Assembly: GCA_977017645.1 (NCBI GenBank)
Contig: OZ360226.1
Coordinates: forward strand, 101,060,001 to 101,124,000
DNA: 64,000 nt
Direction of reading: 5' to 3'
Source of the DNA: Torpedo marmorata
Taxonomy: Eukaryota
Of this stretch, positions 39,168-40,926 are shown piece after piece; positions within the stretch are counted from its first letter, which is position 1; every line of letters begins with the position of its first letter. Below the pieces are notes generated by a model. It searched no databases. It was not told the origin of the DNA and worked only from the letters and a program-made list of their open reading frames with translations. A program made the translations under genes and the position numbers.

Positions 39168-40926
39168 GTTGTAAGAAATTTCCAGGATACTTCAACAATG
39201 TTATCAAGAATGTCTTTAATTCAAAATCGACTCATTCCTTTTACAATGGATAATCAACGTTTAAATATATGGAAGATTGTTATGAGGGGGATAAATTAAT
39301 GTCATTTGAACAATTAAGAAATAAATATGGAATACAAAATAATACACTTTCTTGTTACTATCAGTTAAAAGCATATTTAAGAGACAAATTAGGCCCAACA
39401 ATGTTATTTCTGAAACCTAGTGACATTGAAATTTTGATTCGGAATAGACGTATAAAAAAATTTACTTCAGTTATGTATAATTTATTACAAAAAGGAACTT
39501 TAAAAAAAGGGATTCATAGATCCAGACAAAGATGGGAGATGGATTTGAATATAAATATTGATGAACGAAATTGGTCGGAGTTATTACAATAAATGTTAGG
39601 TATAGATTGGTTCAATATAATTTCTTATATCAATTATATATTACACCACAGAAACTGAAAAGGTTAAAATCAGATTTATCAGATCAATGTTTTAGATGTC
39701 ATCAGGAAATAGGAACTTTTCTACATTCAACTTGGTCTTGCCCTAAAGTAAGATCTTGTTTTTTTTGTTTTTTTTTTAAAAACAGTATTGTTCTTTATTT
39801 GACATCATACGCCTGGTAATTCAGTGTCCTGCTGTACAACTTTCACTTTCCATTAAGCAAACTGCTCCAAATATTATATTAACATTATTCCCAATGCAGC
39901 CTTTACATCAAACAATTTCATCCTGTCTTGAATTTCTTAAACTTTAGGCCCTCAAAAACTTTGCTGCATATTTGCATGACCTTCTCTCCCTCCTGATGTA
40001 ACCCTGCACACCTACAGTGTGGGCTCCGGCAAATGCCCAGTATTCTCAATAGAACATTACAGCACACTACAGGTCCTTCTGCCACAAGGTTGTGCCGACC
40101 TTCGTCAACCTACTCCAACGTGAAGTAAACAAACCATAAAATCTTCTCCCTAAATATCTGGGCCTCGCCTCTTTTAAGCTGCTTCCACTAAGTATCAGCA
40201 TCTTTTTTTTATTTTATTTTATTTAAACTTTTAAATCACAAAATACATAGAATAAAATATAAAATTATCAAAATACATGTGATATATTTTCACCCCCCCT
40301 CCCTCCCTTCCCTAACCCCCCATCCCCACTTAAAAAGTAAGATCTTGTTGGATAGACTTAAAAAATTTTTTTAGAGCAGATTATGAGAACTAAATTCCCA
40401 CAAGAGGGACAAGACCCAAATTGAAATTACATGTATCAGAAAGAATTCTTAAAAATAGCATTAGCAGTAGCAAAAAAATGTATAGCAGTAACTTGGAAAT
40501 CAGACTCCCATTTGGAACGGTGGAATACAAAAATGCGTAGTTGTATCCCACTTGAGAAGATTACTTGTAATTTAAGAAATAAATATGATGTATTTTTGAA
40601 AATTTGGTGCCCATATTTACGAATTGTAGGAGTAAACTTAGTCATTTCTTTTCTTACACCAAGTGCCTCAATTTCCCCCTGAGAATATATGAGGGGAAAA
40701 AAAAAGTAATTATCAAAAACCGTGATGTAGGAGCCGACTTTTTACCATCCAGGTCACTTTATCTTTCTTCATACTTTTCTTTTATTTCTTTTCTGGGGTT
40801 TTGGTTTGGGGGGAAAGGAGGGTTGGGATTTACCCATGTAATAATAATAATGAATTGACATCTTGTTATGTATTATACAATTATGCATGTATGGATAAAA
40901 TTTTTAAAATAAAATATTCCAAAAAA
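39168..40926 (+). mobile_element. 5'-truncated fish-type L1, interrupted by an antisense insertion
   Basis: YRLVQYNFLYQLY..CFRC..HSTWSCPKVRSC|WIDL..ALAVAKKCIAVTWKS; tentative TSD AAC(T/C)CCAAA at 39159-39167 and 40927-40935. Confidence 0.9.
39761..40333 (-). mobile_element. L1 3'UTR stub plus transduced flank (3' transduction)
   Basis: 16-bp TSD AAAGTAAGATCTTGTT at 39745-39760 and 40334-40349; 40203-40331 is the reverse complement of the L1 3'UTR at about 32615-32735; two A-tails. Confidence 0.85.

Follow-up and report, generated by a model that had tools for sequence, protein, structure and literature searches.

In a 64,000-nt window of the Torpedo marmorata genome, the whole stretch of DNA analysed here, the minus strand of positions 39745-40349 holds one L1-made insertion that carries unique DNA of another locus and acquired it via polyadenylated RNA. 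We regard it as probably a parentless 3' transduction, whose parent L1 stood at a source locus on the assembly sequence C39, on an allele absent from the assembly. Directly observed are a single target-site duplication (TSD), an L1 stub, two tails and one source locus, which now lacks an L1. The preliminary description had interpreted this stretch as an L1-mediated 3' transduction nested antisense inside another L1. The L1-made insertion with unique foreign DNA that passed through polyadenylated RNA is borne out, while read-through of a parent L1 is what we infer as the likeliest route. The insertion is genuine and probably neutral; it is intronic, lies antisense to a CYFIP1-like gene and bears no functional sign.

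Anatomy of the insertion and its host L1

The insertion splits an older L1 of a different family, which runs in the sense direction of the CYFIP1-like gene (39199-40928), has its own AATAAA near 40910 and starts 58 nt past the donor site of a coding exon. The features are as follows.

39046..39140, plus strand: CYFIP1-like coding exon (PDB 3p8c_A, E 3.8e-12, 28/31 identical)
39199..39760, plus strand: 5' part of the host L1 (older, different family)
39745..39760, minus strand: 3' TSD copy, 16 bp, by repeat comparison
39761..39779, minus strand: second tail, non-templated (TT, A10, C, A6)
39780..40205, minus strand: tag, probably transduced, 426 nt, a copy of the C39 locus by genome match
39794..39799, minus strand: AATAAA, likely the poly(A) signal used
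40049..40117, minus strand: CR1-like LINE tail remnant of ~69 nt, within the tag and also at the source
40203..40223, minus strand: first A-rich tail, three overlapping AATAAA and then A8 (40210-40203)
40224..40333, minus strand: L1 3'UTR stub, 5'-truncated, 110 nt, starting at the G-rich tract, with an extra T at 40333
40334..40349, minus strand: 5' TSD copy, 16 bp, by repeat comparison
40334..40928, plus strand: 3' part of the host L1, with the ORF2 end and 3'UTR

Read on the minus strand, the parts follow one another as TSD, L1 3'UTR stub, A-rich tail, tag, AATAAA, second tail and TSD, which is the structure of a partnered 3' transduction (an L1 end, a tail, a foreign tag, a second tail and one TSD). 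The last three A's of the first tail also match the C39 source, and the second tail begins 14-16 nt past the first downstream AATAAA. The preliminary description had placed A8 at 40210-40203, AATAAA at 39799-39794 and the second tail at 39777-39761, and all three lie as described. The 16-bp TSD, which it had called perfect, is indeed identical at 16/16 positions between 39745-39760 and 40334-40349, and it is the longest of two repeats of at least eight bases between two 100-base windows at the junctions, with a chance probability of ~2e-5. When the insertion is skipped, the host L1 ORF2 frame is continuous across the site (WSCPKVRSCWIDL), so that the host peptide resumes there as had been claimed. 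In the other host-family copies, the TSD 16-mer occurs singly in 19/19, and a G common to both TSD copies of the window is absent from 19/19. Therefore, the duplicated target is this host copy's own.

The host family is large, with 3759 candidates and the best other copy at 93%. The 6.2-Gb assembly contains the exon region once (1/1 match), with no allelic or duplicated copy of the window locus. Elsewhere in the window, tandem arrays lie at 37705-37857, 36221-36586 and 42374-42931, with near-perfect 16-bp, 46-bp and GC-rich 57-bp units, and a repeat pair at 19712-20380 and 44250-44924, 24.5 kb apart and 95-98% identical, likely represents a young retroelement family.

The L1 family of the stub and its target sites

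The stub had been matched to the G-rich 3'UTR of the L1 at 30932-32738 of the window, and this match holds at 86.7% over 128 nt, though closer relatives lie elsewhere. The closest of 25 aligned copies, L082, differs from the stub by 1 substitution in 110, and a 64-nt part of the stub has 568 exact genomic copies. The ORF2 of the family matches human L1 ORF2p (E 1.8e-88, residues 14-577), and long family copies match PF03372 and PF00078, with PF13966 at E 0.0015, below its cut-off. Their ORF1 gave coiled-coil matches and Transposase_22 at E 0.019, also below cut-off. Judged from the predicted ORF2, with its APE endonuclease, reverse transcriptase and C-terminal zinc motif, the stub family appears to be an L1-clade LINE.

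We examined 44 other family insertions, comprising 23 events (including those of the window, with three duplicated loci counted once), 9/20 loci from the 64-nt copies and 12 C39 3' ends, the latter being all those in 220 kb. In 33/44 of them the first tail is immediately followed by a 10-20 bp TSD, the other 11 being without such a call. The family thus has the L1 traits of an A-rich tail, 10-20 bp TSDs and 5' truncation. A second tail with a TSD, as in a second transduction, was found in none of the 44 other insertions, 33 of which are resolved. Two distant TSD candidates in the 220-kb sample turned out to be a neighbouring L1 copy and a low-complexity match. Many family tails (copies L082-L126) hold T-runs between their A-runs.

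At the target sites, C is favoured before the A-run, most often as TC, which is the commonest target of the stub family. TC was present in 12/29 unambiguous sites (7/15, 2/6 and, in the unselected 220-kb sample, 3/8, with six ambiguous sites dropped) against a background of 252/2922 A-run starts (8.6%). Unlike this (T)C|AA bias, the human L1 target is TT/AAAA, as given in the accessible text of a preprint (bioRxiv 10.1101/2025.02.02.635956).

Several copies of the family share positions or surroundings. Four end at or inside the G-rich 3'UTR tract, namely the stub (40333), L046, L111 and a C39 copy 59 kb upstream of the source, and L046 (L046:1501, oriented) is truncated at the same base as the stub. 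A G-quadruplex stall possibly lies behind these shared truncations, and short copies are common anyway. L054, L055 and L056 (C126, C91 and C810) present one L1 insertion with its flanks three times, at 97-99.9% identity and on small contigs, which reflects segmental duplication or assembly redundancy. Family copies including L046, L048, L052, L057, L112 and L123 are often located in or beside other L1s, several of them antisense; a nested arrangement like the present one is therefore nothing exceptional for the genome.

The source locus and the proposed parent L1

The only other full-length copy of the tag lies at G000:C39:196273156-196273578 (L002:1496-1918), with 6 substitutions in 423 columns (1.4%) and a 3-nt insertion in the tag at 40194-40192, 11 nt from the junction. 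This insertion makes a 5-mer that also occurs in the TSD, through target-site templating or by chance. Full-length matches numbered two, the tag and the source, among the 40 that were scored out of 1268 candidates. The CR1-free part of the tag together with 640 nt of downstream flank gave 2/2 matches in 6.2 Gb, and the 5' end of the tag likewise. The source has no second tail, other sequence continuing after its AATAAA, which shows that the tag was copied through polyadenylated RNA. The AATAAA at 39799-39794 is the first on that strand downstream of the source junction. A partnered transduction calls for a source without the second tail and for a poly(A) signal 10-30 nt before that tail; the tag has such a source, and its AATAAA lies within this distance.

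The foreign DNA might instead result from two events, the tag being the body of a repeat or an earlier retrocopy at whose 5' end the stub inserted later, or from capture at the DNA level. The tag does contain a 69-nt repeat remnant; the preliminary description had noted a CR1 tail remnant near 40050-40100, and we place it at ~40049-40117 and take it to be CR1. However, the tag beyond this remnant is found only twice in 6.2 Gb, which excludes the tag as the body of a repeat family, a possibility the preliminary description had itself raised together with a stub bearing its own TSD. Moreover, no second TSD surrounds the stub, and the non-templated tail after AATAAA indicates RNA. We therefore consider both two events and DNA-level capture very improbable.

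The preliminary description had expected the tag to map directly downstream of a longer L1 at a source without the second tail, and possibly to reveal siblings. One source without the second tail was found, whereas the longer L1 and the siblings were not. The assembly has no L1 at the junction, nor any longer same-strand L1 directly upstream of the source, and the site is empty in a relative, organism B, too. No 3' end of the stub family lies within 19 kb upstream; the nearest is 38 kb away and belongs to another subfamily. That copy, a full-length L1 of 5.8 kb on the same strand (C39:196229074-196234912; L128/L129), has a 15-bp TSD and an open 1272-codon ORF2, and GAT follows its tail as in the tag. 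It could have been the parent only through splicing, deletion or a long template jump. Against this, its 3'UTR and the stub show 6-7 differences in ~110 sites, subfamily marks among them, where ~1.6 would be expected (P ~0.005). Moreover, its tail is not followed by a GT donor, and pyrimidines make up only 55% of the acceptor that splicing would have used. We rejected it as parent, spliced transduction included, largely on these 3'UTR differences, and its probability is close to negligible; none of the four further family ends on that strand within 220 kb is a better fit. The L128/L129 copy is itself young, and no ORF1-size open frame was seen in it.

Genome matches to the tag or to its 5' end contained no sibling transductions. 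L103 and L104, in which an L1 tail precedes the same 12 bases, were considered as siblings and rejected: their similarity to the source ends after 12-14 bases, a separate 16-bp TSD flanks L103, and the density of the family would by chance produce roughly one match of this kind. With no siblings and a tag 1.4% diverged from its source, the earlier proposal that the tag identifies an active source element is unsupported. No gene was identified near the source, the reading frames in the surrounding 29 kb being mostly repeats.

The source junction reads GGTC|AAAG; the kilobase leading up to the poly(A) signal contains four TC|AA sites, of which the junction is one. A matrix built from 15 family sites ranks it in the top 132 of 58584 positions (top 0.2%), and in the top 1.7-5.6% when only A-run starts are counted. 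The source also adjoins an antisense CR1-like fragment, whose 5' truncation point coincides with the first base of the tag within 0-1 nt; we estimate the prior chance of this coincidence at 1-2%. A parentless transduction does not predict it, but a chimera of reversed order would, in which ORF2p was primed on the poly(A) of an L1-free C39 transcript, stalled where the antisense CR1-like segment begins (possibly dsRNA) and switched to an L1 tail through AAA microhomology, or in which the two RNAs were ligated. The parent L1 would then never have been at C39. In line with this, neither this genome nor organism B has an L1 at the source, the start of the tag falls exactly on the CR1-like boundary, the three A's shared at the junction could equally be template-switch microhomology, and the derived 3-nt insertion by the junction may be a scar. 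On the other hand, targeting predicts a TC ahead of the junction and switching does not (~41% vs 8.6%), no Rfam family reached threshold at the source, where a single match was at chance level, and the chimeras described in the accessible text of the preprint cited above (bioRxiv 10.1101/2025.02.02.635956) run the opposite way, with foreign RNA 5' and L1 3'. We judge such a chimera unlikely.

Six public runs, all as contigs and none of RNA, contained part of the source, and five of these were compared; the lack of RNA runs says nothing for or against expression of the source. Contigs of organism B, 6-9% diverged, bridge the junction without an L1 in 2/4 runs, with a net gain of one base. These data indicate that the empty state is ancestral and that the 3-nt insertion is derived and lies on the tag side. 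A parentless transduction calls for an empty site resembling a family target, and the site is TC|AAAG and empty in this outgroup. Organism A is 1.9% from the source at depth 3-7, its coverage stopping short of the junction. As for the window insertion, with repeats skipped, contigs of organisms A and B reach neither of its junctions. At 39926 and 39994 the tag has the base of organism B, and a different base is common to the source and organism A. Position 39994 falls in a CpG, and organism A is represented there by one contig of depth 3.1. In addition, 40032 is private to the tag, 39815 is private to the source of this genome, 39810 is probably tag-private by count and 40180 lies outside coverage. 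Descent of the tag from a separate, older haplotype would predict the organism B bases at 39926 and 39994, and these bases point to a haplotype since lost as the possible origin of the tag. Since the tag-source divergence (1.4%) is close to that between the source and organism A (1.9%), the event would date to roughly the time of the split from organism A, as gauged against one shallow contig (depth 3.1).

A parent fixed at C39 and later cleanly removed by recombination between its TSD copies would look just like a parentless transduction, both in anatomy and in its target-like junction. Precise removal of an L1 is rare. Moreover, the source is scarless and the 3-nt difference is on the tag side, and at two sites the tag falls outside a group formed by the source and organism A. 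Clean removal is thus distinctly improbable, and population data are what would separate it from loss of an allele.

The order of the parts, the single TSD, the use of the first AATAAA and the target-like junction together fit a lost parent L1 at C39. In the mechanism we propose for a parentless transduction, a stub-family L1 would have inserted at TC|AAAG of C39 on one haplotype, and RNA polymerase II would have passed the AATAAA abutting the parent's tail and reached the next AATAAA 403 nt downstream. ORF2p would then have nicked a site in the older L1 inside the CYFIP1-like intron, and reverse transcription, starting on the new tail, would have copied the tag and then the parent's tail, halting after 110 nt of 3'UTR. 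The parent allele would later have been lost or gone unsampled, while the offspring stayed. Weighing against this reading, besides the CR1-like boundary and the junction AAA, are the parent itself, which is unobserved, the derived 3-nt insertion 11 nt from the junction, and the apparent scarcity of long tags in the family (0/33 resolved insertions, 44 examined).

Comparison with transductions and chimeras in other genomes

L1 read-through transduction is a known kind of event, well documented in mammals and expected wherever L1 works. Judged by title and abstract, no on-topic report of L1 3' transduction in a fish or cartilaginous fish appeared in our search, from which subscription journals mostly fall outside. 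The present locus would be a sequence-level case, with a mapped source, suggesting that a large genome of a non-mammalian vertebrate, too, was shaped by L1 read-through transduction. It pinpoints a position, C39:196273155/6, at which individuals can be genotyped for a lost or segregating L1, and its analysis brings out a (T)C|AA target bias of the stub family.

The comparisons that follow draw on the accessible parts of the cited papers. As in primate germline transductions, whose tags span 8-997 and 51-1570 nt, the tag here is within range at 426 nt and the transfer is inter-chromosomal (PMC9311842, PMC4862182). A short L1 with a long tag has also been reported there (a 116-nt L1 with a 1043-nt tag), and some human sources are non-reference L1s. 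In contrast, the events in the primate sets are polymorphic and linked to subfamilies of known activity (PMC9311842, PMC4862182), whereas activity of the Torpedo source is unsupported.

Like U6/L1-type chimeras, which are made by template switch or RNA ligation, the insertion joins L1 and foreign sequence in one TSD; its order is reversed relative to theirs, and it has two tails (bioRxiv 10.1101/2025.02.02.635956). If it were nonetheless a chimera, such chimeras would mimic parentless transductions, and some members of that class would be no sign of a lost source allele.

The closest parallel in structure comes from the dog, in which 24/27 mapped transductions are parentless (PMC13141329) and one parentless case was solved via a dimorphic parent in another assembly (PMC13103737). 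Unlike the canine cases, the present one is in a non-mammalian genome and involves an L1 family whose targets are biased towards (T)C|AA; it is 1.4% diverged rather than known to be dimorphic, its parent allele is unseen, and a CR1-like boundary lies at its junction. Like the canine parentless transductions, it consists of an L1 3' end, a tail, a unique tag and a second tail within one TSD, and its tag maps to a single locus without an adjacent L1.
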